A DNA stretch of 64,000 bases from Thermodesulfobacteriota bacterium (lineage in GTDB: Bacteria > Desulfobacterota_D > UBA1144 > Nemesobacterales > UBA2774), in contig OZ244197.1 of NCBI GenBank assembly GCA_965216785.1, positions 25,120 to 89,119 on the forward strand. The letters are read 5' to 3'. Below the pieces are notes generated by a model. That model saw only the letters and a program-made list of their open reading frames with translations. It had not been told where the DNA came from and did no database searches. Positions 3,168-27,996 of this stretch are shown here, piece after piece. Made by a program: the position numbers and the translations under genes. Position 1 is the stretch's first letter; each line of letters opens with the position of its first letter.

Positions 3168-4631
3168 TTATTTCTTTCCTCTCGCGCTAGTAGCACCGGT
3201 TTTTTTATTTTTGGTAGAAGATTTTTGTTTGCCCCTTACCGTACTCTTCTTTTTAGAGGCCTTCTCTCTTTTCTTTTTTTCCCAGTCTTCAATGACAGTT
3301 TGTCTCGCTCTGCCGATTGCGAGAGCGCCCTCGGGTACGTCCTGGGTAATCGTCGAGCCCGCTCCGGTTACAGCGCCCTTGCCTACTTTAACGGGCGCTA
3401 CAAGCATTGTGTCGCTCCCGATGAAGACACCGTCCGAGATCTCGGTTTTATGCTTATTAATCCCGTCGTAGTTGCAGGTAATAGTGCCAGCTCCAATATT
3501 CACTTCTTTCCCAAGCGTAGCGTCCCCTACGTAGGATAGGTGCGACACTTTTGAGCCCTGACCGACAGTGGACTTTTTAATCTCTACAAAATTCCCTATC
3601 TTGGCGCCTTTCAGGATTCGGGCCTCAGGGCGCAGGTGAGCGAACGGGCCCACACTGACCCCCTCACCTATCGATGCCCCGGTTATGTAGCATGAGGACT
3701 TCACAGTAACACCGTTTCCAATGACTGAATATTCAATCCATACATGGGGACCGATAATAGATTCGCTGCCGATTTTGGTTTTTCCGTAAATATGAGTGCC
3801 GGGATAAATAACGGTATCTCGTCCAATGACCACCTCAGGAGAGATGTAGGTCGAGCCAGGCTCTATTAGCGTTACGCCCGAGTTCATTATCCTTTCGTTA
3901 ACCCTCTCTCTCATTATAGACTCTATTTGAGAGAGCTCTAATCTATCGTTTATTCCCAAGACCTCAGTTGAGTCAGAGACCCTAACCGCCGAGACCCCGA
4001 GATTACGTTTACGAGCGATTTCAATTATGTCCGTAAGATAATATTCCTTCTGTTTGTTCTCAGGTTTAATGCCTCTTAATAGCGGCCATAAAACATCGCT
4101 ACTGACTATATATGTTCCGGAATTGATCTCTTTTATTTTTCTTTGCTCTGCCGTGGCGTCTTTTTCTTCTACAATACGCTCGAGTTCACGGGCCTTGTTT
4201 ATAACTACTCGACCGTATCCCTTCGGGTCGTCCACAGTTGCCGTGAGAACGGAAATTTTAGAGCCGCTTTTTTCATGAGCGCCCAGAAATCTTTTAAGAG
4301 ACTTTGAAGTAATAAGCGGGAAATCGCCGTTTAATATCAGAACATTGCCCCTGAATTTTGAAAGCTCGTTGCGGGCGCAGGCCGCCGCATGGCCAGTGCC
4401 GAGCCGCTGCTTTTGATGGGCGTATTTTATGCCATCCGATCCAAACTCGTCTTTTACTTCCTTAGCCCCGTATCCTACCACCATAACTGTTTGCGCCGGT
4501 GCGAGTGCACTCACGGCATCCAGTACGTATCTCAGAATCGGACGGCCCAGCACGGGGTGGAGCACCTTAGGCTTTGAGGATTTCATCCTCTTTCCAAAAC
4601 CTGCCGCAAGCACTACGACTGCAAGCTTCAT
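3168..4631 (-). CDS. glmU: Bifunctional UDP-GlcNAc pyrophosphorylase / GlcN-1-P N-acetyltransferase, with unusual Lys-rich C-terminal tail
   Basis: N-terminus MKLAVVVLAAGFGKRMKS...KVLH (nucleotidyltransferase G-rich loop). C-terminal left-handed beta-helix hexapeptide repeats. It abuts glmS (stop/start adjacent). The last ~40 aa are KKKREKASKKKSTVRGKQKSSTKNKKTGATSARGKK. Confidence 0.9.
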   Translation of the reverse strand: MKLAVVVLAAGFGKRMKSSKPKVLHPVLGRPILRYVLDAVSALAPAQTVMVVGYGAKEVKDEFGSDGIKYAHQKQRLGTGHAAACARNELSKFRGNVLILNGDFPLITSKSLKRFLGAHEKSGSKISVLTATVDDPKGYGRVVINKARELERIVEEKDATAEQRKIKEINSGTYIVSSDVLWPLLRGIKPENKQKEYYLTDIIEIARKRNLGVSAVRVSDSTEVLGINDRLELSQIESIMRERVNERIMNSGVTLIEPGSTYISPEVVIGRDTVIYPGTHIYGKTKIGSESIIGPHVWIEYSVIGNGVTVKSSCYITGASIGEGVSVGPFAHLRPEARILKGAKIGNFVEIKKSTVGQGSKVSHLSYVGDATLGKEVNIGAGTITCNYDGINKHKTEISDGVFIGSDTMLVAPVKVGKGAVTGAGSTITQDVPEGALAIGRARQTVIEDWEKKKREKASKKKSTVRGKQKSSTKNKKTGATSARGKK

Positions 4632-4636
4632 ATTAT

Positions 4637-4999
4637 TTACTCTACCCTCCCGTATCTGTCCTCAAGCCTTACCACATCGTCAACTTCGGGCGTCGAAGCC
4701 TCTAGCACATCACAATCGGAAATTGCCGTGAAGCGGTGTTTTGTGTAGGGCTTTATTCTAATAGACTCCCCGGGCTCCATATTAAATTCCTTTTTATCCT
4801 CACCTTCTATTTCAATCTCAATGAACATCTTACCACTGAGTAAATATATGGTTTCGTCCTTTTGTACATGATACTGGTAGCTTAGGCACTCTCCCTTGTT
4901 TACGTGCAGTATCTTGCCCACGTATTTATCCGTGTAAGCCCACCAAATCTCATATCCCCAAGGCTTTTCAACTCTTTTTATATTGTCTGTATAAGTCAA
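4637..4999 (-). CDS. Cupin-domain protein (small, mannose-6-phosphate-isomerase-type II-like barrel)
   Basis: 120 aa with EKPWGYE...H..K.E..Y...G cupin motifs. Only 5 nt downstream of glmU. Confidence 0.6.
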   Translation of the reverse strand: MTYTDNIKRVEKPWGYEIWWAYTDKYVGKILHVNKGECLSYQYHVQKDETIYLLSGKMFIEIEIEGEDKKEFNMEPGESIRIKPYTKHRFTAISDCDVLEASTPEVDDVVRLEDRYGRVE

Positions 5000-5076
5000 T
5001 TTTTCTCCAGATAGAATGAATTAAAATGAGTTGACCGTACCGGTGGGTCTATGAATATATTTACTAAAGGATAACA

Positions 5077-5508
5077 CTAAAAAGGTATGTCGTCGTCGGT
5101 TTTAAAAGAATCATCGTCAATTTCAAAGTCGCCTTCGGAGCTCGAGCTGTCTCTGGACGGCGATTCCGATCTGCTTCCCGCAGAGCTCAGCATCTCCATA
5201 CTTCTTGCAACGACTTCGGTAGTCCATCTGGTATTCCCTTCTTTATCTTCCCAGGATCTGGTCCGGAGCTGACCCTCGATATAGACCATCCGCCCCTTAG
5301 TCAGGTACTCACCGCATATCTCGGCCAGCCTGCCCCATGCGACTATTCTATGCCATTCGGTGTTTTCCTGTTTTTCCCCGTCCTTGTTCGTATAGCTGTC
5401 GGAAGTAGCGATCGTAAAGTTCGCAACCGCCTGCCCCCCGGTTGTATATCTGATCTCCGGATCCTTGCCCAGATTACCTATTAAAATTACTTTGTTTACG
5501 CCTCTCAT
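5077..5508 (-). CDS. ssb: Single-stranded DNA-binding protein
   Basis: OB-fold start [22 protein letters not shown], a Ser/Asp-rich linker and the acidic C-terminal tail DDDIPF characteristic of SSB. Confidence 0.9.
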
Positions 5509-5576
5509 TGATATTCCCCCGGTCTAATTTGGCTACTGCAGAAATTCTATCATCTGAGCACATTAAAATCCAGAAA

Positions 5577-6170
5577 TCAGAAAATATGTCTTGTAAGCGA
5601 AATAAACTGACGTAGGATTCTTCCCGTCATGCCCCAGATAATATATTGTTCATAAACGTATGCATAGTCTTCCCTGGGTATTCCATCCCTTTCTCTTAGC
5701 CTGAGCTTAAAGTTCTTCTCATCCATAAGGTGCGTTACCGGCACCCATAGGACCTGTTCAACCTCTCGCGCGCAGGGAGTGAATGAAACCTCCTCATTAA
5801 GTACGGATAGATAGGGAGTTACAATATAAGTCCTCGCGCGGGGGTTATTGGGATTTACATCATCGAGTTCGCCGAGAACTCGTCCGCTTTGAACAATATC
5901 GACCCCAATCTCCTCACGTGTTTCACGCACAGCGGTCTCGAGCTTGTCCGTATCCTCACCCTTCATCTTGCCGCCCGGAAACGCAACATGTCCCGAGAAC
6001 GGGTCGCTGTCGCTATCGGGTCTCTTTATAAAGAGCATGGAAGTCCCGGCAGGCTCTTCCTGTAATATCATCATCACGGCAGCGTGAACGAAGTCCCCTT
6101 CAATCGTTAGTTTATGGGGATCTCTTGCTGCCAGGAGTTTTTGTAATTTTTCGCTAGTTCCCTGAGACAT
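5577..6170 (-). CDS. NUDIX hydrolase (CoA pyrophosphatase-like)
   Basis: Nudix box GGKMKGEDTDKLETAVRETREEIGV (GX5EX7REUXEEXGU). Size is typical of NudL-type enzymes. Confidence 0.7.
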   Translation of the reverse strand: MSQGTSEKLQKLLAARDPHKLTIEGDFVHAAVMMILQEEPAGTSMLFIKRPDSDSDPFSGHVAFPGGKMKGEDTDKLETAVRETREEIGVDIVQSGRVLGELDDVNPNNPRARTYIVTPYLSVLNEEVSFTPCAREVEQVLWVPVTHLMDEKNFKLRLRERDGIPREDYAYVYEQYIIWGMTGRILRQFISLTRHIF

Positions 6171-6210
6171 TTTATTTCAGCTGCTATAGCTGGTTTTAAG
6201 CAGAGTATTA

Positions 6211-6741
6211 TTATTTGTTTATCAACTTCTTTTCAAAAGCATCTTTGAAAATCCGATAAGCACTGTCGTCAAAAAGTACAAAGTAGATTTTCTCGAGCGA
6301 TACTCCCTCATTATTAATATACCAAGAAGTTATATCTATCATAATCTCCGCACATTGTTCGAGCTGGAATCCCCCGACTCCTGTCCCTATAGCGGGGAAG
6401 GCAATAGTTTTAACATTGTTCTCCAGAGCCCTGAGAAGTGCGTTTCTTGTCGCGCTCTCAAGCGACTCCCTACTGACCAGAGCTCCCGGGTGCATGGCTG
6501 CAGCATGTATAACGTATTTGGCCGCAAGGTTTCCGGCTCCGGTGACAGCCGCCTCTCCGAGCTCAATAGGTCCGATCTCGTCACATTCAGTCTGAATGGA
6601 CGCTCCTCCGTTTTTTCTAATGGCTCCGGCCACGCCGCTTCCTAAGATAAGCTCGGTATTAGCGGCGTTCACTATAGCTTCGGCGGGGCACTTCGTTATG
6701 TCGCCCTTTAAAACTTCGATTTTATCCACTAAACTGATCAT
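6211..6741 (-). CDS. Macro-domain protein (ADP-ribose/O-acetyl-ADP-ribose processing)
   Basis: Macro-domain motifs GDIT...AIVNAAN...GGVAGAI and IAFPAIGTGVGG. The track ORF begins at 6786, but the macro domain starts at MISLVDKIEV (ATG 6741). The start is uncertain. Confidence 0.7.
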   Translation of the reverse strand: MISLVDKIEVLKGDITKCPAEAIVNAANTELILGSGVAGAIRKNGGASIQTECDEIGPIELGEAAVTGAGNLAAKYVIHAAAMHPGALVSRESLESATRNALLRALENNVKTIAFPAIGTGVGGFQLEQCAEIMIDITSWYINNEGVSLEKIYFVLFDDSAYRIFKDAFEKKLINK

Positions 6742-6848
6742 AATTTTACTCACATGATATCGGGCAAAAAGTAGCAAGTTGCGCACTTGACAAACAGCGC
6801 AGTAAAACTACTAATTTAATCTATAACTCCACAATCTACAACGACACT

Positions 6849-7754
6849 ATGGACACTAGATATTACATTTTAGAGGCTCTTTACAAGCTCTTCCCATTTA
6901 AGCTCACAGGCGATGCGGAGCTTGGTCCAGAAGATTGCTCAGTAACAGCTTCGTGCGTAATCAATTTTTACGGCAGGGCCTATTTACTCAGAAATATTCT
7001 TACATGCCTTAGCCAGCAGAGATTTGCAAAAGAGAGCTTCGAGGTGATTTTAGCCGAGGACAGGGGCGGCACAGAAGAAGGGAAACAGATAGTCCGGGAG
7101 TTTGAGAAAGAACTGAATATAAAATACTTTACTCTCAACGAGAATTTCGGCGTAATGGGCTACGCAAGAAACTTTGCCCTTTCAAAAACCACGGGAAATT
7201 ACGTGCTGTTTTTGGACGATGATACCGTGATTTTAGAGCGCGATTTCCTGAAAGTGCTAGTAAGAGAATTTGAGGAAACCGCAGCAGACGCCGTAATGCC
7301 ATACGGCAGCGCGAGCTTTTCAGTAATTAAAGACAAATACGATTACCATGACCCCTACTTTCCGACCAACAGGTGTATGGCATACAGACGTGAAGCGCTC
7401 AAAGAGCTTTCAGGATTCGTATCTGAAATCATTGGTCAGGAAGACGTGGAATTTACCGTTAGACTAATTGCATCTCAGAAAAAGATCTATCGCTCAAATA
7501 TGCTTTCATACATGCACCCGCCTCTTATTTACAAGGATACGAATAAAGCCGCGGCAGTCGGCTACTCGTTTACCAGACTGAGGAGCAGATATCCCCTTAT
7601 TATCTGGCTATTACTTCTGTTAAACGGGCTTAGATACCTTCCGCTTTATCTTCTTCCCTTCAGCACCAAATACAGAATGCAGGCTAAATTCAGCCTCGGC
7701 TTCGCAAAAGGAATCTGGTATTCGATAACAGGCAGAAAAATCGAGTACAGTTAA
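6849..7754 (+). CDS. Glycosyltransferase family 2
   Basis: GT-A fold features: early acidic AED, DDD (LFLDDDTV) and a membrane-associated C-terminus. First gene of the glycan locus. Confidence 0.7.
   Translation: MDTRYYILEALYKLFPFKLTGDAELGPEDCSVTASCVINFYGRAYLLRNILTCLSQQRFAKESFEVILAEDRGGTEEGKQIVREFEKELNIKYFTLNENFGVMGYARNFALSKTTGNYVLFLDDDTVILERDFLKVLVREFEETAADAVMPYGSASFSVIKDKYDYHDPYFPTNRCMAYRREALKELSGFVSEIIGQEDVEFTVRLIASQKKIYRSNMLSYMHPPLIYKDTNKAAAVGYSFTRLRSRYPLIIWLLLLLNGLRYLPLYLLPFSTKYRMQAKFSLGFAKGIWYSITGRKIEYS
7671..7750. repeat. Direct repeat copy 1 (3' end of the GT2 gene), paired with 12986-13065
   Basis: tacagaatgcag..cagcctcgg.....gcagaaaaatc.agta is shared at ~70% identity with 12986-13065. 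There it is a non-coding remnant that translates YRMQFKLSLG...* against the native YRMQAKFSLGFAKG. Confidence 0.6.
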
Positions 7755-7908
7755 GGTTCTAATATATAGCAAGCTCTGTTAATCTATAATTTAATCTATT
7801 ACATGTCTGAACACATACTAGGTGTTAAACTATTTACATTAATTAAATCGAGAACAGCATTGTATCCAAACTTTACATAATTGGCTTAATAGAGTTAGGT
7901 AAGCACAA

Positions 7909-8715
7909 ATGTTTGATTTAGAAAAAGATAGATCACTAAGAGACCTTATCGAAACACAAAACAATAATGTTATAGACAAATGGGAAGGATATTTCAGTGT
8001 TTATGACGATGAAACAGAATACTTAAGAAACAAACCAATAAATCTATTGGAAATTGGTGTTCAAAATGGCGGCTCATTAGAGGTATGGTGTAAATATTTC
8101 AGCAAAGCTAAGAATGTAATTGGAGTTGATATTGATCCCAACTGCAGTGGTATCTCATTTGATGATAAGAGAATAAAGGTAATTATCGGCGACAGCAATT
8201 CCACATCACTAAAAGATGAATTACAAAATGTATGTCCTTATTTCGACGTAATTATAGATGATGGATCTCACAAATCCTACGATATAATTAAGACGTTCAC
8301 AGATCTTATACCGTTATTGAATTCTAATGGGGTATATATAATCGAAGACCTTCATTGTAGTTACTGGCAAAATTTCCAAGGCGGAGTTGAAAGACCGGAC
8401 TCATCATTAAGCTTTTTTAAAAAAATAGTGGACGTAATTAACATTGAACACTGGCGGAATGGAAAAGATCTTAACTGGTTATTTAGAGATGTGGGTCTTG
8501 TAAATATCAACAGTGAATCCATCGAAGCGTTAAGCAGAATAAAAAGCATCTCATTCTATAATTCAATGTGCATTGTTAAAATGTCAGACGGTAAATATCA
8601 AACAATCGGTAAGAGATATGTAAGGGGAAGCGTCGGGACAATAGAAAAGAACGAATCTGATGGCACAGATATATCAGACGTAGATGAGCAGCAAGACTTA
8701 AACCCGTATAGTTAA
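7909..8715 (+). CDS. Class I SAM-dependent methyltransferase (CmcI/TylF-like O-methyltransferase family)
   Basis: LLEIGVQNGGSLEVW motif I, VIGVDID, and IIDDGSH acidic post-II. Typical of sugar O-methyltransferases in glycan loci. Confidence 0.6.
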   Translation: MFDLEKDRSLRDLIETQNNNVIDKWEGYFSVYDDETEYLRNKPINLLEIGVQNGGSLEVWCKYFSKAKNVIGVDIDPNCSGISFDDKRIKVIIGDSNSTSLKDELQNVCPYFDVIIDDGSHKSYDIIKTFTDLIPLLNSNGVYIIEDLHCSYWQNFQGGVERPDSSLSFFKKIVDVINIEHWRNGKDLNWLFRDVGLVNINSESIEALSRIKSISFYNSMCIVKMSDGKYQTIGKRYVRGSVGTIEKNESDGTDISDVDEQQDLNPYS

Positions 8716-8730
8716 TGTAAAAGCATTATA

Positions 8731-11700
8731 TCACTTTCTGTGATTTATTAAATCTGCATACCTGGAATTAAACAGTCTTAATGCTTTTTGATATAACTCA
8801 AAATCTAAAGAATTCAACTCTGTAATCAAATTCATTAAATTAAGATCCAGATTTTGTACTTTCTCTATGTAGTTCTTCCCTACATTCCGGACTAGGTATG
8901 GAATATCGAGCCCGAAATTAGCATTGAGTAAATGTAGCGATTTCTTATACTGCTCTGTTATACCGATAAAACCTATGTCTTCAGGTATAAGACCATTAAT
9001 AAATTCAAACTGTCTATTTTGAAATTTTTCCGTATGCACAAACTCCAACAAAGTCCCCTTATATCCGTGATGATTTACAAAATGATTATAGTCAGACAAT
9101 ACTCGTTGGACAGGCTCTCTGAAAAATACGATACAACGTTCTGGATTAACTATGCCCCGGTACCTTATAATCGGATAATGACCTATTATAAAAATTTTGC
9201 CCTCTGAGACAAGCCTATTCCTCAGAGATTTCAGGTCATTGCTTTCGTACACAAATTGTCTTATGCAGGGCGATGTCAGGGATTCATCTATTCCATAGTC
9301 ATACGCTATATATTCCTCACCATAAGTTTCTTCTATGCCATTCCTTAAGCTTGTACCCGCGGTTTTTGGAATATGTACGAAAAAGATTGGATCTTTAAAG
9401 CTAATATCGAAAGTGTCTTCTCTTCTAGCGCCGGGTTGAAATGTTTTTAAAGTATTAACGGACGTTGCAGAATTGTCATTTATATATTCAGAAACTGCAG
9501 ATTCCAGCCATGGTTTATATACTTTTGTAGATTGCGCAATCTCAAACGATGAAGAATATAGAGAAAGATTGGGATTATAAAATGGATCATTATCCAATGT
9601 ATATCCCCATTTTGTTCTCATATAAGATATTTCTTTCTTAAATCTGTTTAGTTTCTCTGGCTCAGAATCATATCCTCGAGACTTGCTTTCTAAATGGTAA
9701 AGCTCTGCATGAGGTGTCCATATAATCTTGTAACCGGCCTGCCGAATACGGATACAGAAATCCACATCATTAAATGCCACTGCCAGGTCTTTTTCATTTA
9801 GCCCTCCGATTTCATCAAACACTTCTCGTCTTACTGCCATACAGGCAGCAGTTACACAAGACAAACTATGAGTTAACATGAGCCTACAGAAATACCCAGG
9901 AAACTCTCGATCAGCATAGCGGTGTACATGGCTAGCAACACCTTCGATACCCAGAATAACTCCACCATGCTGTAGTGTATTATCGGAATAGTAGAGTTTG
10001 GCACCGACAGCGCCGACCTCGGCCCGAATTACATGGCTTACCATTTCGTCAAGCCAGCCTGGATTTATGATCTTGGTATCATTATTCAACAAAACACATA
10101 CTTCTCCAGACGAACCGGCAATTCCATTGTTGACAAGTCGTGAAAAATTAAATGGACCTGGATCTTTTACTACCCTAACATTATTGTTTGATTGGACATT
10201 CTCAAGAAACTCGAGAGCATCCTGCTCACTACTCCCGTTATCAACAATAATTATTTCAATTGGCTCATAATCAGTGCGGTTAAAAAGCCCGTCAATACAG
10301 GTCATGAGAAGCCCACTCTGATCTTTTGTAGGAATAATTACTGAAACGTGAGGACACTTTAAAGGTAATTCACGTTTTATGGATTGAAAACTTGAGTGGC
10401 CTTCGGAATTGGCTCTAGCACTCTGATTTGTCCGTTCGAAGTGTTCGTTTACTAACCTCTGTGCGGCATCGCGCGCTAGTTCTGATGAGCTGTTTGAAAA
10501 AGACGCATCAATTTCTCTCCAGTGATAAAGAATAAAAGGAATATGATATATCTCTGATTCCCTTATTATTTCCACTACCCTGAGAGCAAAATCCCAGTCC
10601 TGAGACCCCTCGAATCCTTCGCGGAATCCTCTCACTTTTTGGGCTAGGTCAGCTCTGTAAGCACCGAGATGACTGATCAAATTCTGACCCAGGAAAAGAT
10701 CATAGTCCCAGTCGGGTTTAAAATAAGGGGCAGAGCGCCTCCCTTCTGAATCTATCCGGTCTTCATCAGAATAAATTATTGCCGCATTAGGATTTTCATT
10801 TATTACATCTGTGACCAGATATAGTGCGTGCTCGGATAGTAAATCATCATGATCCAGAAGAACAATCCAGTCTCCGCTTGCCATTTCAAGAGCTGTGTTT
10901 GTACAGGCTGAAATGCCCCCGTTTTCCTGACGAAATGAGGGTCTTATTCGGGAGTCTTTCTCCTCATATTCCCTTAGAATATTGTGTACTTCCATCGAGG
11001 TCGAGGAATCATCAACTATGCAAAGCTCCCAGTTTTCATATAGTTGTCCTAAAACAGAATCGATGGCTTGTCTTAGATACTCGCCTTTCGTATTATATAC
11101 AGGCATAAGTACCGAGAACTTTGGATTGCTATCAAAAGACTTGATATGATTCCGTATCAGAGAGCGGTCTTTATCACTTAAGGTGTCATTTCCCTGTATC
11201 CATTTATAGTAATCGATATTATTTGAAGCATTCTTTTTGTTGAAGTATCTGGAGGTTCGTGGAATCTCATGCGGGAGCCGCTTTCCCCTCAGGTACCAGT
11301 ATAACCTACCGGAGAATGTCTCTATTCCTTCATTTTTAAGCAGCTCTATCCCCAGCCCGGCATCTTCATACAAAAACGCTACCTTGTTTTTGAGTAAAAC
11401 GAACAGGTCAGCAATGCCCCTTAAAGGATGTGTAATCCGCCATGACCAAGTTACAAGTATGTTGGCTATTGTTTCCTGCTGTTCTCGAACCTGTTTTGAT
11501 AATTCTAGATTCTTCCTATCTGATTCACTCAGCTTTGACTTTAGGCTATAAATTTTACTCTTATAGATTTCTTTTTCTTGTTGCAATATCTTGAAGCGTT
11601 CATCTGAGGACAAAAGCACCTCTTGCTCACCACTTAGTTCTTCAAGACGCTTTAGCAAGAGGTTTGTCTTTGCGAATGGATTCGATGTCGAAGAAGAACA

Positions 11701-12801
11701 AGATGGGCGATGCTGCCTACAGATATCCGCTATGTAGTCCCAGTGCTTTTCAAGCTTGCCCTGTGCTGCTTTCGTAAATGAACAAATACGAGGTGTTCCT
11801 GATTGTACCGCCCGCGCAAACTTTGCAATCGCACCTGAGTCCTGCGGCGAGGCATAGTAAACATTGTCTGATGCTTGCAACAGTGTGTATTTGCCACCTT
11901 TGGCTTCGGCAGGCCGGAGCACAGGCAAGCCATATGCTAGCGCCGAAATCGAGAGATGCAGGCTCTGGGCAATGACACCGGCGCTATGCGCTACGAGCCC
12001 GGCAATTTCAATGGGTGATGGCCACTCCGGCAGATGCTTCGCCTTTGGGAGGACTTTTAGAAAAGGCGAGACATCGTCACCGAGAGCGGGTCCGATCGGC
12101 AGCACGAGGACATCGAGATCGGAAGGCACATCAGGATGGTAGAGTAGAGCTTCTATAATTGCTACCATTGATGGGTACGCCTGAACAACGATGTATCTAT
12201 CTCTTAATTTAAGACGAGAGAGAAGGTTCTTCACCCGACTGCGTAAATCCTTTCGGGGAAAGTGGCGCGAGATTGCAAAGACGGTATCAGGAACAACACT
12301 GCACGTGCCGTCGAAACCGGCCCTGCGGAGCGCATCGACACTAGAACGATCTCGTAGAGCAACATAGTCGCTATTTTCGAGTACTAAAGGTAGGAGTTTT
12401 TCAGACCATTCTGGAAATGCATCCGACGCACTTGGCGCATTCCAAATTACCGGCAGACCTGAACCAATACCTGCAAGAGCCGGTGCGAGCCAGTATCCTG
12501 TTGGATGAGGAATCTCCGGGATCGGCGGTGCGTAGCCAGGTGCCACAGCTTTATCAAAGCGGATGAGGTGGCCCCCTCCGATCAGGATACAATCAAGCCT
12601 CTGTTGACCAGGCGGCTCCGTGTTCAAACTGGTGAGACTCTTAACGTCATAACACCATGACGGAGACCTCTTTTCATGATATGAATATCGAACAAGTTCA
12701 AAATCTTCGAGCCGTTCATTAAGCTCCCGCTCCGCGATCATTGGAAACAGCAGATCGCCGTAATTCTCGACATCAAAAGTTCCGAAGATACCAATGCGCA
12801 T
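8731..12801 (-). CDS. Four-domain glycan-modification fusion protein: polysaccharide pyruvyl transferase + coiled coil + GT2 + GT2 + sulfotransferase
   Basis: 1356 aa. N-terminus MRIGIFGTFDVENYGDLLFPMI (PS_pyruv_trans/CsaB-WcaK-like). A heptad-rich linker follows at ~aa 380-470. GT2 number 1 has FSVLMPVYN...CIVDDSS...LLDHDD. GT2 number 2 has VSVIIPTKD...IIVDNGS...LLNNDT. The C-terminus carries FFVHIPKTAGTSL (PAPS 5'-phosphosulfate-binding loop) and FFREPVQRVLSDYNH (3'-phosphate-binding motif) of a sulfotransferase. Confidence 0.75.
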   Translation of the reverse strand: MRIGIFGTFDVENYGDLLFPMIAERELNERLEDFELVRYSYHEKRSPSWCYDVKSLTSLNTEPPGQQRLDCILIGGGHLIRFDKAVAPGYAPPIPEIPHPTGYWLAPALAGIGSGLPVIWNAPSASDAFPEWSEKLLPLVLENSDYVALRDRSSVDALRRAGFDGTCSVVPDTVFAISRHFPRKDLRSRVKNLLSRLKLRDRYIVVQAYPSMVAIIEALLYHPDVPSDLDVLVLPIGPALGDDVSPFLKVLPKAKHLPEWPSPIEIAGLVAHSAGVIAQSLHLSISALAYGLPVLRPAEAKGGKYTLLQASDNVYYASPQDSGAIAKFARAVQSGTPRICSFTKAAQGKLEKHWDYIADICRQHRPSCSSSTSNPFAKTNLLLKRLEELSGEQEVLLSSDERFKILQQEKEIYKSKIYSLKSKLSESDRKNLELSKQVREQQETIANILVTWSWRITHPLRGIADLFVLLKNKVAFLYEDAGLGIELLKNEGIETFSGRLYWYLRGKRLPHEIPRTSRYFNKKNASNNIDYYKWIQGNDTLSDKDRSLIRNHIKSFDSNPKFSVLMPVYNTKGEYLRQAIDSVLGQLYENWELCIVDDSSTSMEVHNILREYEEKDSRIRPSFRQENGGISACTNTALEMASGDWIVLLDHDDLLSEHALYLVTDVINENPNAAIIYSDEDRIDSEGRRSAPYFKPDWDYDLFLGQNLISHLGAYRADLAQKVRGFREGFEGSQDWDFALRVVEIIRESEIYHIPFILYHWREIDASFSNSSSELARDAAQRLVNEHFERTNQSARANSEGHSSFQSIKRELPLKCPHVSVIIPTKDQSGLLMTCIDGLFNRTDYEPIEIIIVDNGSSEQDALEFLENVQSNNNVRVVKDPGPFNFSRLVNNGIAGSSGEVCVLLNNDTKIINPGWLDEMVSHVIRAEVGAVGAKLYYSDNTLQHGGVILGIEGVASHVHRYADREFPGYFCRLMLTHSLSCVTAACMAVRREVFDEIGGLNEKDLAVAFNDVDFCIRIRQAGYKIIWTPHAELYHLESKSRGYDSEPEKLNRFKKEISYMRTKWGYTLDNDPFYNPNLSLYSSSFEIAQSTKVYKPWLESAVSEYINDNSATSVNTLKTFQPGARREDTFDISFKDPIFFVHIPKTAGTSLRNGIEETYGEEYIAYDYGIDESLTSPCIRQFVYESNDLKSLRNRLVSEGKIFIIGHYPIIRYRGIVNPERCIVFFREPVQRVLSDYNHFVNHHGYKGTLLEFVHTEKFQNRQFEFINGLIPEDIGFIGITEQYKKSLHLLNANFGLDIPYLVRNVGKNYIEKVQNLDLNLMNLITELNSLDFELYQKALRLFNSRYADLINHRK

Positions 12802-12985
12802 ATGTGTCTCACAAAGTTACTTCAGAGGAATTTGTAAAAATTTGAGTTTTAAATTCATGCTTCTCTTATTTTTATCCTTTTGCACTAAATTAGTCTGTCT
12901 GTTTTAAAAAAGAAATACAATACTCATTATTTCCTGAACATTACGAACAAAACGGTTCGGAAACTATTTCCCCCTCATAATGAGT

Positions 12986-13065
12986 ACAGAATGCAGTTTA
13001 AACTCAGCCTCGGTGTTGTACCCATAATCTGTTATTAGTGACCTGCAGAAAAATCAAGTATAATG
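12986..13065. repeat. Direct repeat copy 2 (non-coding remnant of the GT2 3' end)
   Basis: See 7671-7750. Together the two copies bracket the ~5.2 kb segment carrying the methyltransferase and the 1356-aa fusion gene. Confidence 0.6.
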
Positions 13066-13102
13066 AATTCGCATTCTCACCCCTAACAGGCACATATTAT
13101 CA

Positions 13103-13876
13103 ATGATTAAAAGAGTAATACCCTATAAAGACCTCTTCATAGTCTACGTATGGAGAGAATATAATATAAGATACCGCCATTCCATCATGGGATTCCTGTG
13201 GGCTATTATTCAGCCCTTGAGCATGATGCTTCTCTTTACATTCGTTTTCACATACATATTGAAGATACAGACATCGGACTACCCGATAGCAATATTCTTT
13301 TACGCGGGACTCTTGCCTTGGACCTTTTTTTCTTCTTCAGTGAATTATTCTGTTTCAAGCCTTTCTGACAACTTTGATATAATTACAAAGATTTATTTCC
13401 CCAGGGAAATACTTCCACTCTCTGGAATATCCGTGGCTTTTGTCGATTACCTCATAGCCTCGCTCATATTTATACCTATGCTTGTAATATATAAAATCCA
13501 AATCACATTAAATGTGCTCTGGATCATCCCTCTTTTCATTCTCCTATTTATATTTACAATATCGATGTCTCTTTTGCTATCGAGCTTAAATGTGTATTAC
13601 AGAGACGTAAAACTTGCAATTGGGTTTTTGATACAACTTTTATTCTTTGCTTCTCCGATTCTTTATTCAATTGATGACCTGAGCATCAAGCTTAAATTGA
13701 TACTATTGCTCAACCCTCTTACATTTATTATTGAAAATATGAGAAGATGCTTGATTGAGGGGCGAGGAGTGGTGTTGTGGCAGTTTTTAATAGCTGCATT
13801 ATTGGTATTAGCATTCTTTTATCTAGCACATAAATTTTTCATAAAAACAGAAAGGGATTTTGCAGATGTCATCTAA
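13103..13876 (+). CDS. wzm: ABC-2 type polysaccharide/O-antigen exporter permease
   Basis: 257 aa with six predicted TM segments and the ABC-2 signature region. Its end overlaps the following ATPase gene by 17 nt. Confidence 0.8.
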   Translation: MIKRVIPYKDLFIVYVWREYNIRYRHSIMGFLWAIIQPLSMMLLFTFVFTYILKIQTSDYPIAIFFYAGLLPWTFFSSSVNYSVSSLSDNFDIITKIYFPREILPLSGISVAFVDYLIASLIFIPMLVIYKIQITLNVLWIIPLFILLFIFTISMSLLLSSLNVYYRDVKLAIGFLIQLLFFASPILYSIDDLSIKLKLILLLNPLTFIIENMRRCLIEGRGVVLWQFLIAALLVLAFFYLAHKFFIKTERDFADVI

Positions 13877-14597
13877 CACAGTCATAGAGTTTCAAGACGT
13901 GTGGAAGAAATACTCCACACAGGACATTTTCCATAAATCCATAAGGGATGAGATCGCCAATATATTTTCCAAGACCGACAGAGAAAACCTCGGGCACGGA
14001 GAGTTTTGGGCTTTAAAGGGGATTAGTATGTCGATAAAAAGGGGTGAGTGCATAGGATTATACGGACCCAATGGTTCTGGAAAATCTACGATTTTAAAAC
14101 TGATAGCATCAGTCACTTTTCCAAACAGAGGAGAGGTTAAAGTGGGAGGCAGAATAGCCCCGTTAATATCTGTAGGTGCTGGCTTTCATCCTGATCTTAC
14201 AGGAAGAGAGAATATTTACACCAATGGAACTATAATTGGAATGACTATCAAAGAAGTAAGAGATAAAATAGAGGATATCGTTCAATTCTCGGATATCGAT
14301 GAGAAGTTTATTGATATGCCAGTTAAGAAATATTCAACCGGTATGAATGCGCGGCTTGGCTTTTCTATTGCAATTCACAGTAGTGCGGAGATAATATTAA
14401 TCGACGAAATACTCGCTGTTGGAGATGAAGCTTTTCAGAAAAAATGTCTAACTAAGATCGAAGAGCTAATTGAGAAAAAAAGAACCATAATTATCGTGTC
14501 TCATAATAAAGACAGGCTCCGAGAATTGACTCACAGAATATTATTTATTCAAACAGGTGAAATAATTGATTCAGAATACCAAGAAAAGGTACTATAA
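13860..14597 (+). CDS. wzt: ABC exporter ATP-binding protein (short Wzt lacking the C-terminal glycan-binding domain)
   Basis: Walker A GPNGSGKST, signature YSTGMNARLGF, Walker B IILIDEILAVGD. At 245 aa it has no carbohydrate-binding extension. Confidence 0.85.
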   Translation: MQMSSNTVIEFQDVWKKYSTQDIFHKSIRDEIANIFSKTDRENLGHGEFWALKGISMSIKRGECIGLYGPNGSGKSTILKLIASVTFPNRGEVKVGGRIAPLISVGAGFHPDLTGRENIYTNGTIIGMTIKEVRDKIEDIVQFSDIDEKFIDMPVKKYSTGMNARLGFSIAIHSSAEIILIDEILAVGDEAFQKKCLTKIEELIEKKRTIIIVSHNKDRLRELTHRILFIQTGEIIDSEYQEKVL

Positions 14598-14626
14598 TTT
14601 ATGTCATCACATTATTCAAAGAGGAT

Positions 14627-16054
14627 ATGATGGGATATAACCCAAAAGTAGCAATCGTAATAGTTACATGGAACAAAAAGAAGTATGTAGTAGATCTACT
14701 GAACTCACTAAAAGACATTAACTATAAAAACTATGAAATATTTGTAGTAGATAATGCGTCTACAGACGATACTTGCAAAGTAATAAAAGAAAAGTATCCA
14801 TATGTGGATTTAATAGAGAATGAGGAAAATCTTGGGGGAACCGGCGGATTTAACACTGGGATGAAGTACGTTCTTGAGAAGGGCGGCTATAAGTATATAT
14901 GGCTCTTGGATAACGATGCAGTGGTAGAGAAAGATACACTAATCGAGCTTGTTAAAGTTATGGAAAACGACAACGGCGTAGGTATTACAGGTTCTATAAT
15001 AATGGAACCTGACAAGGAAATGATAGTTGAGCTCGGAGCATATGTATCATGGTCTATTGGAACATGGAAGCCAAATATGCGGAATAACAGAATAAGCAAA
15101 ATGGAGCATCTCGAGAATGCAGAGGTCGATTATGTAGCTGCGTGCTCGTCTCTAGTACGTACTGAAGTTCTTGAAGAAATCGGAGTAATGGATGAAAGAT
15201 ATTTTATACATTGGGATGATATTGACCTCTCTCTGAGAGCCAAGGCTGCCGGTTATAAGGTAATGGCATCACCAAAGTCTAAAGCTTATCACGGGATCGA
15301 GGACAAACCCATTAACCCTCTAATGTCATATTATGACATTAGAAACGGGCTACTTACAATCACAAAACATCAAGACGGTTTAAGCAGGTTTATATATATA
15401 ATGAACATGCTGAGGGGAACGAGTAAGGGTATCGTATACTCTATGTTAAGCGGACTTCACAATACTTCTAAGCTCCTGATTCGTGGGCCTATAGATTTCA
15501 TAAGGGGCAAATTTTATAAAACTAATATTCAGGTGATCAAAAGTGAATATGATGACCCGAAAGTTAGAAAATATAAAATAGAAGATTTACCGCTCAATAA
15601 TAATTCTAAAGTGATAATTCAACCTAATGCAAGCTACGCAGTCATTAAAAATATGGTACAAGAACTAAGAGAACTATATCCCGACTGCCATATTAGCTTA
15701 CTGATACAGCAAGACAGACAAGAGCTTTTTAAAGGCCTTAAGATTGACCGTTTTATTACTTTTGAAGGATACAGACAATCAACTATACAAACTATTTCGG
15801 TACTCAACAAGATACTACAATCGAATTATGATATTTGCATCAGCCCAAGCCGTTCACTTCTTCCGTTCTCACATGCTGTAAAAAAATACTTCTTGTATGA
15901 TCATCAAAATGACTATTTTGTAAAGAGTAATGAAAATTTATTTGCATCCTGGAAGCTCTTCGTATCATTCTTTGCGGGGGAGTTACTAGCATTTATTCTT
16001 TTACCCTTCGTATATCTTAAGAGCTTTCAATATGAGACAGTAAAGAGCTCTTAA
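14627..16054 (+). CDS. Glycosyltransferase family 2 (rhamnosyltransferase-like) with ~230-aa C-terminal domain of unknown function
   Basis: N-terminal GT-A motifs: VIVTWNKK, FVVDNASTDDT, LLDNDAVV. The C-terminal half has no recognisable motif. Confidence 0.7.
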   Translation: MMGYNPKVAIVIVTWNKKKYVVDLLNSLKDINYKNYEIFVVDNASTDDTCKVIKEKYPYVDLIENEENLGGTGGFNTGMKYVLEKGGYKYIWLLDNDAVVEKDTLIELVKVMENDNGVGITGSIIMEPDKEMIVELGAYVSWSIGTWKPNMRNNRISKMEHLENAEVDYVAACSSLVRTEVLEEIGVMDERYFIHWDDIDLSLRAKAAGYKVMASPKSKAYHGIEDKPINPLMSYYDIRNGLLTITKHQDGLSRFIYIMNMLRGTSKGIVYSMLSGLHNTSKLLIRGPIDFIRGKFYKTNIQVIKSEYDDPKVRKYKIEDLPLNNNSKVIIQPNASYAVIKNMVQELRELYPDCHISLLIQQDRQELFKGLKIDRFITFEGYRQSTIQTISVLNKILQSNYDICISPSRSLLPFSHAVKKYFLYDHQNDYFVKSNENLFASWKLFVSFFAGELLAFILLPFVYLKSFQYETVKSS

Positions 16055-16108
16055 CTTACATCCACAAAATTATTTGAGAGAAACAAATTGATTTAGAGAT
16101 AACAGGCT

Positions 16109-17020
16109 ATGTACTCTAAATTACCAAACTTTTTCATAGTAGGTGCTGCAAAATCAGGCACAACATCAATTTTTGCATATCTGTCTCAACACCCAGAAAT
16201 TTTTTTTAGCCCTCTTAAAGAGCCTAAGTTCTTTTCTGTCTCAGCAAACACATTTCCTCATAAAGGACCTGGTGATAGTGAAGTTGACAATACTATAATT
16301 AAAGATAAGCACGATTACCTTAATCTGTTTAAAGGTGCTAAAGATGAAAAAGTCATTGGGGAAGCTTCAGCTGATTATTTATATTTCTATAAGATTGCAG
16401 CACCTTTGATATACGAATGCAACCCTAATGCAAAGATACTTATAATTCTGAGAAACCCGGCTGAAAGAGCCTTTTCCGCTTATCGACACATGCTGAAAGA
16501 CAAAAGAGAAAGCCTCTCATTTGAAAACGCCATTGAAGCTGAAGAAAGTAGGATGGACAATAATTATGAGTTCATATGGTTTTACAAAGACGTTGGTCAT
16601 TACTATCACCAAGTCCTGGAATATTTAAAGACTTTCAATAAAGGTTCAGTAAAAATTTGCCTTTTCGAGGATTTAACAAAGAATTCAAGCGAAGTTACAA
16701 GGGAAATTTTAAAGTTCCTTGAAGTTGATGAGTGCTTCTCACCGGATATAAGCGAAAAACATAATGTATCGGAGATAAAACTTAACGAGTCGTTAGACCA
16801 ATTCCTAAGCAGGTATAATCATCCTGTTAAAAATTTGCTTCGCCCCTTATTCCTCAACACTTTAGGTAAAGATAATACAGAAAGATTAGTGAATTATTTC
16901 AAAGGTAAGAATGTTCTTAGAATGAGATCAAAAACGAGGAAATCCCTGATTAATTTATACAGGGATGATATTATAAAACTCCAAGATTTAATAAAGCGTG
17001 ATCTATCGTCTTGGCTTTAA
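16109..17020 (+). CDS. Sulfotransferase (PAPS-dependent, carbohydrate sulfotransferase-like)
   Basis: 5'-PSB loop FIVGAAKSGTTS and 3'-PB motif ILRNPAERAFSAY. 303 aa. Confidence 0.8.
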   Translation: MYSKLPNFFIVGAAKSGTTSIFAYLSQHPEIFFSPLKEPKFFSVSANTFPHKGPGDSEVDNTIIKDKHDYLNLFKGAKDEKVIGEASADYLYFYKIAAPLIYECNPNAKILIILRNPAERAFSAYRHMLKDKRESLSFENAIEAEESRMDNNYEFIWFYKDVGHYYHQVLEYLKTFNKGSVKICLFEDLTKNSSEVTREILKFLEVDECFSPDISEKHNVSEIKLNESLDQFLSRYNHPVKNLLRPLFLNTLGKDNTERLVNYFKGKNVLRMRSKTRKSLINLYRDDIIKLQDLIKRDLSSWL

Positions 17021-17090
17021 TTACTAGCATAATAACTTAGTAATGAAGGCTCTGAAATACAATTCCAGTTCTTGACCTCACGTACGAATT

Positions 17091-18401: not shown

Positions 18402-18517
18402 TTTAATTTTTTCCGTCCTCCATAAAAGTTAGATCAATATATAACATGTTTAAGCCAAAGATTACAAATTTCGCACGTACACAAAATTTGGCAGAGCGGC
18501 CAGCAGTACTTTCAGAG

Positions 18518-23496: not shown

Positions 23497-23982
23497 TTAT
23501 CTATTTTTCTTAGGCCTGTCCTTCTCTTCTATATACTCACCTATCTTAGTATTTCTTCTGACCGAGGGGGGAAGGTTGGAAAGGTCCGGTTTTGGCATAT
23601 TAGTTGAAAGATCGCTCGTAAAAGCAAAACTAGAGACGACCTTCTCAACTTTCTTAGTGTCGCAAAACGGGCACCTGACTTTATTCTCGTCCTTATCTTC
23701 ATAGATAAGCTCGGAAAAACGATAGTTCTTCCCTAGATTGAAAAACACCAGAGTCGTTCCTTCATTAAGATAAAAATCCAAATCGACAGCGTCTTTATCA
23801 CGCTTACCGTGTTCACCCAAGATTGTTTCTTTCTCCGTATCATAAACTACTACATGATTTATATTGTCATACTTCTTAACCAGCTCGGATACGGTTTTTT
23901 TATTCGCTTTATTAGCAATTGACTTCAAAGAATCATCTACGTTTTTCCTGCATACCGTGCATTCATATTCAAATAGCGGCAT
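23497..23982 (-). CDS. FmdB-like zinc-ribbon protein with ~90-aa insertion (paralog A)
   Basis: MPLFEYECTVC (FmdB-type N-terminal CxxC). The second CPFC pair is ~95 aa later. Lys-rich. Confidence 0.55.
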   Translation of the reverse strand: MPLFEYECTVCRKNVDDSLKSIANKANKKTVSELVKKYDNINHVVVYDTEKETILGEHGKRDKDAVDLDFYLNEGTTLVFFNLGKNYRFSELIYEDKDENKVRCPFCDTKKVEKVVSSFAFTSDLSTNMPKPDLSNLPPSVRRNTKIGEYIEEKDRPKKNR

Positions 23983-24000
23983 CTCACTCCTCCGGATCTA

Positions 24001-27918: not shown

Positions 27919-27926
27919 TCTTTACC

Positions 27927-27975
27927 ACTAGTATTTATTTATTTGGGTGAGAGGTCAATTTCAGGATTAAATCAG
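27927..27975. repeat. Duplicated 5'-region segment (copy 1), paired with 29501-29548
   Basis: actagtatttatttatttgGgtgagaggtcaatt is near-identical to the segment upstream of paralog 2. The reverse complement contains TTGACC, a -35-like hexamer. Confidence 0.6.
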
Positions 27976-27996
27976 AAACTAAGATATTCTTAAAAC

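Follow-up and report, generated by a model that had tools for sequence, protein, structure and literature searches.

Organization of the locus

The window (the whole 64,000-nucleotide stretch of DNA analysed) contains one ORF at 8731..12801 (-) that starts with ATG, has no internal stop and encodes 1356 amino acids; the single polypeptide of the original prediction was thus borne out. The N-terminus of this protein, MRIGIFGTFDVENYGD, agrees with the N-termini of the homologues P0001-P0003. A single reading frame encodes a PEP-type pyruvyl transferase domain, a predicted helix of 78 residues, a pair of GT2 modules, and a carbohydrate sulfotransferase of the PAPS type. The content and order of the domains also held as first described, with all four catalytic modules upheld by Pfam, family profile, Foldseek, and invariant residues. 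None of the catalytic motifs is disrupted.

Divergent from the large gene lies a glycan ABC exporter. Its ABC-2 permease gene, wzm (13103..13876 (+); Pfam ABC2_membrane), matched the galactan export permease Wzm/RfbD and KpsM in NCBIfam, both under the cut-off. The ATPase gene, wzt (13860..14597 (+); 245 aa), had ABC_tran as its only Pfam domain, and its NCBIfam matches were TagH and Wzt/RfbE-like. They are followed by a 475-aa GT2 (14627..16054 (+); Pfam GT2 at 10-184), a candidate adaptor or primer glycosyltransferase with best NCBIfam matches to a rhamnosyltransferase subfamily (E=4.6e-27, below the cut-off) and GlfT1, and by a stand-alone second sulfotransferase of the Sulfotransfer_3/1 type (16109..17020 (+); 303 aa; Pfam Sulfotransfer_3 E=2e-16, Sulfotransfer_1 E=2.5e-15). 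Convergent with the large gene is a 268-aa Methyltransf_24 methyltransferase (7909..8715 (+); Pfam E=5.9e-7), and a 301-aa GT2 with a hydrophobic C-terminus (6849..7754 (+); Pfam GT2 E=8.5e-20) bounds the glycan locus on the left. Neither rml nor PAPS-synthesis genes were found in the window.

The genes flanking the large gene are common to the window and locus L001; L001 and L091 are orthologous loci with 78% identical proteins. L001, L090, and L091 all keep the Methyltransf_24 gene next to the large gene, and a Methyltransf_24 gene also occurs near the pyruvyl transferase fusions of L088 and L089. The 301-aa GT2 is conserved in L001 and L090; in its place L091, whose contig ends there, has only an unannotated ORF fragment of 106 aa. 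In the orthologous loci L001 and L091, Wzt (427 and 421 aa, respectively) carries a Wzt_C carbohydrate-binding module (CBM). No such module was found in the Wzt of the window, nor in those of L082, L084, and L090; cap-dependent export is therefore not supported for the window locus. Wzm/Wzt were not found within 8-10 kb of the pyruvyl transferase fusions in L085, L087, and L088.

The pyruvyl transferase, helical spacer, and GT2 modules

Residues 1-363 (11713..12801 (-)) form the pyruvyl transferase domain, the proposed chain-capping terminator, with PS_pyruv_trans matched at 13-295 (E=2e-28; 100.6 bits, cut-off 25.3). Searches with this module, including its family profile, gave no sequence-level match to solved pyruvyltransferases, and structure comparison was unable to tell the domain apart from generic GT-B enzymes. 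Members of the same clade, with 43-46% identity to residues 1-300, are fused to Wzt-Wzt_C in many Pseudomonas genomes. The unit of pyruvyl transferase and helix is found fused with a wide range of GT sets, RgpF, GT4, and WbsX among them. In P0005, a Methyltransf_24 domain replaces the pyruvyl transferase and is followed by the same helix end, two GT2 modules, and the sulfotransferase; P0008 has an N-terminal pyruvyl transferase and a C-terminal sulfotransferase in a similar layout.

Residues 375-452 (11446..11679 (-)), proposed as a coiled-coil spacer or molecular ruler, are predicted by AF2 to form one continuous helix with pLDDT of about 75-89. If straight, a helix of this length extends about 11.7 nm at a rise of 1.5 A per residue. 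Its composition is high in L, E, K, S, and Q, and the family profile of the region matched many coiled-coil proteins in the PDB weakly. The heptad periodicity was not significant; 9% of shuffles gave a value as high as the one observed. Of the coiled coil originally claimed, the single long helix is thus predicted and significant heptad periodicity is not, so we prefer to call the putative element a long helical spacer of coiled-coil-like composition.

The spacer is followed by residues 454-530 (11212..11442 (-)), which comprise a WRITHPLR motif and, according to predicted secondary structure and pLDDT, amphipathic helices at 460-488 and 493-504 and a disordered linker at 506-528. A motif of the form W[RK]x[TS]xP[LIVM]R or W[RK][LIVM][TS]xx[LIVM]R follows the pyruvyl transferase module in 36 of 120 homologues. 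The hydrophobic moment of helix 460-488 is 1.09, compared to 0.55 in shuffles. No transmembrane segment was detected in the large protein (the highest 19-residue Kyte-Doolittle mean is 1.46), and a search of the protein for a membrane anchor found none. The region possibly functions in oligomerization or membrane association.

The two GT2 modules, each a proposed polymerase half, occupy residues 531-800 (10402..11211 (-); a GT-A fold type) and 801-1098 (9508..10401 (-)). Pfam matched Glycos_transf_2 at 563-719 and Glycos_transf_2 / Glyco_tranf_2_3 at 817-1041 (E=1e-47 for the pair). The first module, which contains the acidic motifs LLDHDD and SDEDRID, had a phmmer match in the PDB to chondroitin synthase K4CP (2z86, E=8.5e-23); the second contains LLNNDT. 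Taken together, the two modules (about 520-1098) are found at 30-61% identity in 80 genome loci from many phyla.

The sulfotransferase module and its exchange

Residues 1138-1356 and the stop codon (8731..9390 (-)) encode the sulfotransferase. Pfam recovered PS_pyruv_trans and both GT2 domains as originally predicted; the expected Sulfotransfer_2 match, at 1130-1245, stayed below the cut-off (E=8e-4; 20.0 against 22 bits). A profile of 72 family sequences matched heparan sulfate 6-O-sulfotransferase (5t03, E=4.6e-20) and 2-O-sulfotransferase (4ndz, E=5e-10) in the PDB, and the same two structures were the top Foldseek matches of the AlphaFold model of the domain (pLDDT 88). The residues of the HIPKTAGTS, GH, and R...S motifs never vary across the family, whose invariant positions are H1143, K1146, T1147, A1148, G1149, S1151, G1207, H1208, R1228, S1236, and D1333. 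Profile, confident model, and invariant motif residues establish the C-terminal domain as a PAPS-type carbohydrate sulfotransferase, homologous to the heparan sulfate 2-O- and 6-O-sulfotransferases of the Sulfotransfer_2 family.

The linker between the second GT2 and the sulfotransferase (residues 1099-1137; 9391..9507 (-)) is disordered (pLDDT below 50), is unconserved among close homologues, and is the point of fusion or fission. In the syntenic locus L001 the frame breaks at this linker, and the sulfotransferase is a separate 239-aa ORF that shares 20 nt with the end of a 1121-aa gene. The conspecific contig L090 has an allele of 26% identity in place of the sulfotransferase domain; the window locus and L090 are 99-100% identical apart from the swapped cassette. 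Among relatives the sulfotransferase is absent, a separate gene, or a different allele, and fusions of a single GT2 or GT92 with a sulfotransferase recur with the order unchanged. The modules are exchangeable cassettes, by which the locus would vary how a single conserved backbone is decorated.

The separate, overlapping ORF in L001 and the sharp shift in GC across the gene, from 51.4% where it encodes the pyruvyl transferase to 34.9% where it encodes the sulfotransferase, would fit an artefact, in which mis-assembly or a sequencing frameshift joined separate genes or the gene is a decaying pseudogene. We consider this highly improbable. The in-frame junction of the second GT2 and the sulfotransferase recurs in four other assemblies (L082, L085, L086, and L090; L085 and L086 encode the same protein, P0002), which argues against chimeric assembly, and the identical in-frame architecture is present in samples DRR538840, SRR21285598 and SRR21285587 (both with identical P0002), and JGI 3300022665. 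The intact catalytic motifs and the near identity of L090 outside the cassette also speak against it.

Comparison with characterized systems

The four modules were originally described as normally separate genes. This is correct for Wzx/Wzy loci; however, in ABC-transporter-dependent glycan pathways, the type suggested by the adjoining wzm/wzt, polymerases and polymerase-terminators normally have several modules (PMC11231755). In the characterized systems, two GT modules alternate to polymerize the repeat, and the chain is capped by an enzyme positioned at the other end of a coiled coil, a characteristic marker of this strategy; in WbbB (Klebsiella O12) and ORF6 (O7), the terminating enzyme is distal on the coiled coil and the two-GT polymerase is C-terminal (PMC11231755).

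The large protein resembles Klebsiella pneumoniae O7 ORF6, compared by description only, in having a terminator, a long coiled coil or helix, two GT2 modules, and a wzm/wzt locus (PMC11231755). The terminator of ORF6 is an N-terminal methyltransferase-kinase, and its C-terminal GT2 modules are rhamnosyltransferases; P0005, too, has a methyltransferase in the terminator slot; unlike ORF6, the large protein has a PS_pyruv_trans terminator, an added C-terminal sulfotransferase, and a Wzt lacking the CBM. WbbB of Klebsiella O12 and Raoultella terrigena likewise unites polymerization and termination in one polypeptide, with the N-terminal terminator distal to the coil (PMC11231755). No homology to WbbB was detected: WbbB consists of a GT99 beta-Kdo terminator, a coiled-coil ruler, and two polymerase GT modules, with GT99, GT102, and GT103 as the families of its modules in contrast to PS_pyruv_trans and two GT2 here, has no sulfotransferase, and belongs to a system whose Wzt bears a CBM.

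Among pyruvyltransferases, the closest known systems are WbbZ, Pvg1p, and CsaB; at the sequence level, no solved pyruvyltransferase was matched. WbbZ, which caps the Klebsiella O1 antigen, stands alone as an enzyme and has no coiled coil; it shortened WbbY products in vitro in a PEP-dependent manner (PMC10629545), and terminal pyruvate does not control O1 chain length (PMC11231755). That a pyruvyl transferase may terminate chains and regulate their length in Wzm/Wzt systems was proposed earlier for Burkholderia vietnamiensis and Pseudomonas protegens, as bioinformatic predictions, in a 2019 study as summarized in PMC10629545; none of these cases is described there with an integrated sulfotransferase. 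Pyruvate termination itself is thus not new here. New are the fused sulfotransferase and its exchange between otherwise nearly identical contigs. Dedicated sulfotransferases also serve in the making of the bacterial sulfated polysaccharide synechan (xss cluster; PMC8205485). In contrast to synechan, the sulfotransferase of the large protein is covalently joined to the putative polymerase, in an ABC-transporter-type locus. The synechan sulfotransferases are reportedly separate proteins of a Wzx/Wzy-type pathway.

Proposed function

We propose, with a probability of about 0.6, that the large protein is a multi-module polymerase-terminator that makes a cell-surface polysaccharide by the ABC-transporter-dependent route, with a spacer-held pyruvate cap and backbone sulfation. 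The two GT2 modules would take turns in elongating a polymer of repeat units, which grows from a lipid-linked primer on the cytoplasmic side of the membrane, and the sulfotransferase directly behind them would sulfate backbone sugars during addition. The helix would keep the pyruvyl transferase about 11-12 nm away; when the chain reached that far, a pyruvate ketal would be added to its non-reducing end, stopping extension and setting the chain length, and Wzm/Wzt would export the completed chain.

This proposal draws on the identities of the domains, the adjoining exporter, the layout shared with WbbB and ORF6, and the presence of Wzt_C, the second hallmark, in orthologous L001 and L091. The Pseudomonas fusions tie the pyruvyl transferase clade to the exporter, the terminator slot is swapped for a methyltransferase in P0005, and pyruvate can terminate chains, as in WbbZ (PMC10629545). 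It is also favored by the exchange of modules among relatives, by the joining of the pyruvyl transferase and helix unit to many GT sets, and by the coupling of sulfotransferases to GTs in recurrent fusions, with P0008 repeating the overall layout. Several observations count against it. The window Wzt lacks the CBM, the heptad signal is not significant, no Wzm/Wzt were found within 8-10 kb of the fusions in L085, L087, and L088, and the window has no rml or PAPS-synthesis genes. The N-terminal domain is inseparable from generic GT-B enzymes by structure, no membrane anchor was found, and the sulfotransferase takes up the C-terminal position that lies near the membrane in WbbB-type proteins. Chain length in Klebsiella O1 is not controlled by the terminal pyruvate (PMC11231755).

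Some of these observations would suit a polymerizing GT2 pair whose pyruvyl transferase ketalates every repeat or many of them, in the manner of Paenibacillus alvei CsaB, with chain length resulting from coupling to a CBM-less exporter, as in Klebsiella O2a. The CBM-less Wzt of the window, L082, L084, and L090 and the weak heptad signal agree with this, and most characterized pyruvyltransferases act on internal or side-chain sugars (PMC10629545). We nevertheless regard it as unlikely: a per-repeat enzyme is expected beside the polymerase, where the sulfotransferase lies, rather than a long helix away, and both the orthologous loci with Wzt_C and the Pseudomonas fusions point to a recognized terminal cap.

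Rather improbable, in our judgment, is an assembly line that does not polymerize, in which each module acts once on a single acceptor and the helix is only a dimerization element or scaffold. It would build a defined sulfated and pyruvylated disaccharide, which could serve as a side branch, as an adaptor, or as a single repeat. All four predicted activities do reside in one chain, several pyruvyl transferase fusions lack nearby wzm/wzt, and the window Wzt has no cap-binding module; but dual-GT proteins adjoining wzm/wzt are polymerases in every characterized case cited (PMC11231755), and neither the placement of a 78-residue spacer between pyruvyl transferase and GTs in particular, nor the methyltransferase swap in the spacer-distal slot, nor the Wzt_C modules of the orthologous loci would be explained. 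This reading corresponds to the original prediction that two sugars, a pyruvate, and a sulfate are added onto one acceptor, which overlooks the logic of the helix: characterized systems polymerize and then cap, and Wzt_C occurs in L001 and L091.

The marine glycan mimicry suggested originally is a speculative part of that interpretation; no observation points to a marine origin. In an AspRS comparison, Candidatus Dadabacteria and Thermodesulfobacteriota MAGs came nearest to the host among named organisms (about 80% identity), and a relationship to Candidatus Dadabacteria is probable.

A single polypeptide with four catalytic modules

Positions 8731..12801 on the reverse strand of the window hold one ATG-initiated ORF of 1356 codons, and the N-terminus of its product aligned with the N-termini of homologues. 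No database record matched the 1356-aa sequence exactly. An ORF of this length cannot have arisen by chance in DNA of 44% GC. The original prediction that one polypeptide combines a pyruvyl transferase, two family 2 glycosyltransferase (GT2) modules, and a sulfotransferase was borne out by this single ORF, with Pfam matches, profiles, and structural models for the modules. That the fusion is an artefact is highly improbable; this reading is essentially excluded. Close relatives from other samples show full, split, swapped, and sulfotransferase-less architectures.

The Pfam family PS_pyruv_trans (PF04230) matched residues 13-295 with E=2e-28 and a score of 100.6 bits (cut-off 25.3), nearly over its full length (profile positions 1-274 of 280). 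An AlphaFold model of the N-terminal 560 residues (pLDDT 84) contains a compact pyruvyl transferase domain at residues 1-363. All three pyruvyltransferase motifs listed in PMC10629545 (NxGD, Rxxx(S/T), and H) were found, as N13-Y-G15-D16, R150-DRS-S154, and H282; among 43 homologues, no variation occurs at G15, D16, R150, or H282, and conservation of N13 is 90% or higher. Judged by sequence, the domain probably belongs to the CsaB/WcaK/WbbZ/Pvg1p-type family, with PEP-dependent ketal pyruvylation as its predicted activity. Structure comparison did not distinguish the domain from generic GT-B enzymes. A phmmer search with the domain against PDB sequences gave no match, and the profile of the 43 sequences had no PDB matches beyond coiled-coil proteins and the 2OG-oxygenase segment that some fusion partners bring in; WbbZ and Pvg1p were not among the matches.

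In the 560-residue model, a single continuous helix of 78 residues (375-452) separates the pyruvyl transferase from the GT2 modules. It is followed by a low-confidence loop with the sequence WRITHPLR, by amphipathic helices at 460-488 and 493-504, and by a disordered linker (506-528) that leads into the first GT2 module. The long helix has a coiled-coil-like composition, and the profile of this region weakly matches coiled-coil proteins; since residues 375-452 gave no significant signal in a heptad FFT and register test, we do not claim a coiled coil as proven. No transmembrane segment was found in the 1356-aa protein. WRITHPLR (residues 454-461; window positions 11419-11442) comes directly after the long helix, and a motif of the form W[RK]x[TS]xP[LIVM]R or W[RK][LIVM][TS]xx[LIVM]R occurs past the pyruvyl transferase in 36 of 120 homologues, regardless of the domains that follow. 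The motif may serve in oligomerisation or in docking to the membrane.

Pfam placed Glycos_transf_2-type domains at residues 563-719 and 817-1041 (E=1e-47; PF00535 in two stretches, 162.7 bits, above the cut-off), and the protein has the acidic DxD-type motifs LLDHDD, SDEDRID, and LLNNDT. In a PDB sequence search, the GT2 part matched K4CP, a chondroitin synthase that also has two GT2 domains (E=8.5e-23). The core formed by the two GT2 modules (residues ~520-1098) was found at 30-61% identity across 80 genome loci from many phyla; roughly one locus in four lies close to a recognisable wzt, and rml genes occur at some.

The sulfotransferase domain

The Pfam evidence for the C-terminal module (residues 1138-1356) fell short of the curated threshold, with Sulfotransfer_2 scoring 20.0 bits at 1130-1245 against a cut-off of 22, but profile, fold, and invariant motif residues all identify the module as the predicted sulfotransferase. 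The alternative allele in the close relative P0001 scored 23.6 bits, above the same cut-off. With residues 1097-1356 as query, 113 homologues were found, mostly stand-alone proteins of 168-431 aa, many of them named 'sulfotransferase family 2' and many containing PF03567. A profile of 72 homologues matched heparan sulfate 6-O-sulfotransferase (HS6OST, 5t03; E=4.6e-20) and 2-O-sulfotransferase (HS2OST, 4ndz; E=5e-10), and the same two structures were the top Foldseek matches (probability 1.00) of an AlphaFold model of the domain (pLDDT 88.4). Eleven residues are invariant in the 72 homologues: H1143, K1146, T1147, A1148, G1149, and S1151, which lie in HIPKTAGTS, and G1207, H1208, R1228, S1236, and D1333. 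From general knowledge of sulfotransferases, we infer that these residues serve PAPS binding and catalysis; we take HIPKTAGTS (PKxGxT/S) to be the 5'-phosphosulfate loop, R1228...S1236 the 3'-phosphate motif, and G1207-H1208 to hold the candidate catalytic histidine.

The word-indexed homologue search missed two of the fusion proteins, P0002 and P0005, whose C-terminal domains share 64% and 76% identity, respectively, with the query, so fusion proteins can be missed by searches of this type; an exhaustive search found P0002. The sulfotransferase family comprises 3519 cluster representatives. Among the best 150 of these, the query's own cluster was the only one with a protein of more than 1100 aa. 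Six of ten mid-size representatives tested (581-1034 aa) were single GT2/GT92-sulfotransferase fusions with the domains in the same order.

Relatives and exchangeable modules

Close relatives combine the modules in different ways. P0002 (loci L085/L086) has the full architecture at 70% identity, with no Wzt within 10 kb, and rmlA-D-like genes occur at its locus. P0001 (L090) also has the full architecture, with the other sulfotransferase allele and a Wzt of 243 aa that has no carbohydrate-binding module (CBM). In P0005 (L082), a Methyltransf_24 domain replaces the pyruvyl transferase, followed, as in the window protein, by the helix end, both GT2 modules, and the sulfotransferase; the Wzt has 248 aa and no CBM. 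P0004 (L091) ends after the second GT2 module, with no sulfotransferase gene after it, and its Wzt (421 aa) carries the CBM Wzt_C. At the locus of P0003 (L001), which shares flanking genes with the window, the sulfotransferase is a separate ORF of 239 aa that overlaps the large gene by 20 nt, and the Wzt (427 aa) again carries Wzt_C. L001 is collinear with the window at ~81% DNA identity up to position 12961, just upstream of wzm, where the similarity stops.

L090 was compared with the window in segments of 200 nt. Over 3342-8600 and 10200-15957 most segments are 99-100% identical, with a few at 88-97%, whereas over ~8720-10000 the identity is 57-79% with gaps. This divergent region corresponds exactly to the sulfotransferase domain and the end of the second GT2 module. 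The sulfotransferase domains of the window and L090 are 26% identical, and both are Sulfotransfer_2. Taken together, the relatives show the large gene to be a mosaic of exchangeable modules.

The pyruvyl transferase and helix also occur as a module of ~460 aa in other company, fused to RgpF, GT4, WbsX, 2OG-oxygenase, or methyltransferase modules. Many genomes of Pseudomonas have this module joined to the C-terminus of Wzt-Wzt_C. In P0008, an N-terminal pyruvyl transferase and a C-terminal Sulfotransfer_2 enclose different glycosyltransferases. Nine loci were inspected for adjoining Wzm and Wzt genes, which are present in six (the window, L001, L082, L084, L090, and L091, not L085, L087, or L088); in the Pseudomonas locus L083 the fusion to Wzt is direct. 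The L083 gene (8001-10709; Pseudomonas chlororaphis, CP011020.1), like those of P0051-P0069, encodes a protein of ~900 aa with a Wzt ATPase, Wzt_C, and a pyruvyl transferase of the same clade. The Pseudomonas fusion gene adjoins genes for a 2OG-Fe(II) oxygenase and multi-glycosyltransferase proteins.

A stand-alone Methyltransf_24 gene adjoins unrelated pyruvyl transferase fusions in L001, L088, L089, L090, and L091, accompanied in L001, L088, L089, and L090 by a small GT2 gene (6849-8715 for the pair in the window). Sugar O-methylation is one candidate role for this methyltransferase. As a source of the N-terminal methyltransferase of P0005, the stand-alone protein was rejected, there being no significant similarity between them.

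Genomic context

Transcribed divergently to the large gene are wzm (13103-13876) and wzt (13860-14597); the latter encodes a protein of 245 aa with ABC_tran only and no CBM. After wzt come a GT2 of 475 aa that resembles rhamnosyltransferase and GlfT1-type enzymes and a second sulfotransferase (16109-17020), which is unrelated to the fused one. On the other side of the large gene lie the Methyltransf_24 gene (7909-8715) and a 301-aa GT2 (6849-7754), and beyond these, housekeeping genes (a macro-domain protein, NUDIX, ssb, glmU, and glmS). No rml, PAPS-synthesis, or other donor-pathway genes were found within the 64-kb window. Scans for promoters and terminators across 6000-18500 returned about as many hits as expected from shuffles (39 versus 34.5 and 10 versus 8.3, respectively). 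The AspRS shares ~80% identity with proteins of Candidatus Dadabacteria and Thermodesulfobacteriota MAGs, and the host was placed by these neighbours. The contig that carries the window measures 3.12 Mb.

Within the large gene, the GC content is 51.4% in the pyruvyl transferase, 40.6% in the helix and linker, 42.6% and 39.9% in the first and second GT2 modules, and 34.9% in the sulfotransferase. The neighbouring genes (wzm, wzt, GT2, second sulfotransferase, and Methyltransf_24) have 34-38% GC versus 44% for the whole window. The GC differences suggest that the modules have different origins.

Comparison with polymerase-terminator systems

In PMC11231755, two glycosyltransferase modules are described as the polymerase, contained in the same polypeptide in Klebsiella O12 (WbbB) and O7 (ORF6), and the coil as a molecular ruler in characterised systems. 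Taken one module at a time, the 1356-aa protein appears to match this scheme, with its 78-residue helix at the position of the coil. The Wzm/Wzt exporter, expected in coiled-coil terminator/polymerase systems (WbdD, WbbB, and O7 ORF6), is present at the locus in the window and in L001, L082, L090, and L091; a C-terminal cap-recognising CBM is absent from the 245-aa Wzt of the window and present in L001 and L091. As for the terminator, the O1 antigen of Klebsiella is capped by the pyruvyltransferase WbbZ, which in vitro makes the products shorter (PMC10629545). According to the same article, pyruvate-based termination has been proposed, though not validated, for B. vietnamiensis and P. protegens, and, as of 2023, pyruvate chain termination with length control was without 'critical validating biochemical evidence'.

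We favour a polymerase-terminator with co-polymerisation sulfation, at a probability of roughly 0.6, on account of the fit to the Klebsiella scheme, the methyltransferase swap, the loci with Wzt_C, and the Pseudomonas Wzt fusions; the last three are independent lines of support. The polymerase would sulfate the backbone during polymerisation, and the spacer-held pyruvate cap, as the residue at the non-reducing terminus, would stop polymerisation and set the modal chain length of the glycan. The original prediction had the fused modules act as an assembly line on one acceptor, which we now rank below the polymerase-terminator and consider quite improbable. A polymerase with internal pyruvylation has the better standing of the two alternatives, though it too is unlikely. 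The main weaknesses of the polymerase-terminator reading are the CBM-less Wzt in the window, the unproven coiled coil, and the lack of an identified membrane anchor.

The type of machine and the idea of a pyruvate terminator are already known in the literature. Our literature search found no description of a covalently integrated carbohydrate sulfotransferase, of strain-level replacement of a sulfotransferase cassette, or of a natural variant series around one conserved di-GT2 core. We therefore put forward, tentatively, that this may be the first carbohydrate sulfotransferase inside an ABC-transporter-dependent polymerase-terminator: an uncultured Dadabacteria-like lineage would make a backbone-sulfated glycan with its length set by the spacer-held pyruvate cap, and the sulfotransferase would be a swappable cassette that changes the sulfation pattern of strains, and so a surface antigen or phage receptor.

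As a compact single-polypeptide system, the protein would be a convenient test case for pyruvate-based termination. Its natural variants are set apart solely by the terminator, which is either a pyruvyl transferase or a methyltransferase, or by the sulfotransferase, which comes as two alleles, as a separate ORF, or not at all. Defined sulfated polysaccharides, otherwise rare, might be made in bacteria with the help of a polymerase that contains its own sulfotransferase. The sharply bounded cassette swap shows a route for surface-glycan diversity through domain exchange inside one gene.

The O-antigen cluster of Aeromonas salmonicida, of the ABC-transporter-dependent type, encodes a 216-aa sulfotransferase-domain protein between wzt and a WbbB-like polymerase, and no sulfate is known in this O-antigen (PMC4483657). 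Here the fused sulfotransferase may have an analogue in split form.

Other genes in the window

A PAPS-independent arylsulfotransferase of the ASST family (589 aa; 21660-23429, reverse strand) lies 4.6 kb from the glycan locus and brings the number of sulfotransferase-type genes within 15 kb to three. At 23497-24504 (reverse strand), adjacent proteins of 161 and 167 aa each have an N-terminal zinc-ribbon motif, with Zn_ribbon_8 matching below threshold. Two tandem genes at 26440-29472 (reverse strand) encode PMT_2/ArnT-like GT-C glycosyltransferases of ~490 aa, which could add periplasmic-side sugars. In a 264-aa ORF at 53782-54576 (forward strand), residues 60-109 match the collagen triple-helix repeat; the ORF next to it (52362-53318) has no Pfam match. 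At 36307-44686 (forward strand), a 2-oxoacid:ferredoxin oxidoreductase set (FrhB-like, POR alpha/gamma, and beta) is located immediately 5' of the E1 and E2 genes of 2-oxoglutarate dehydrogenase.
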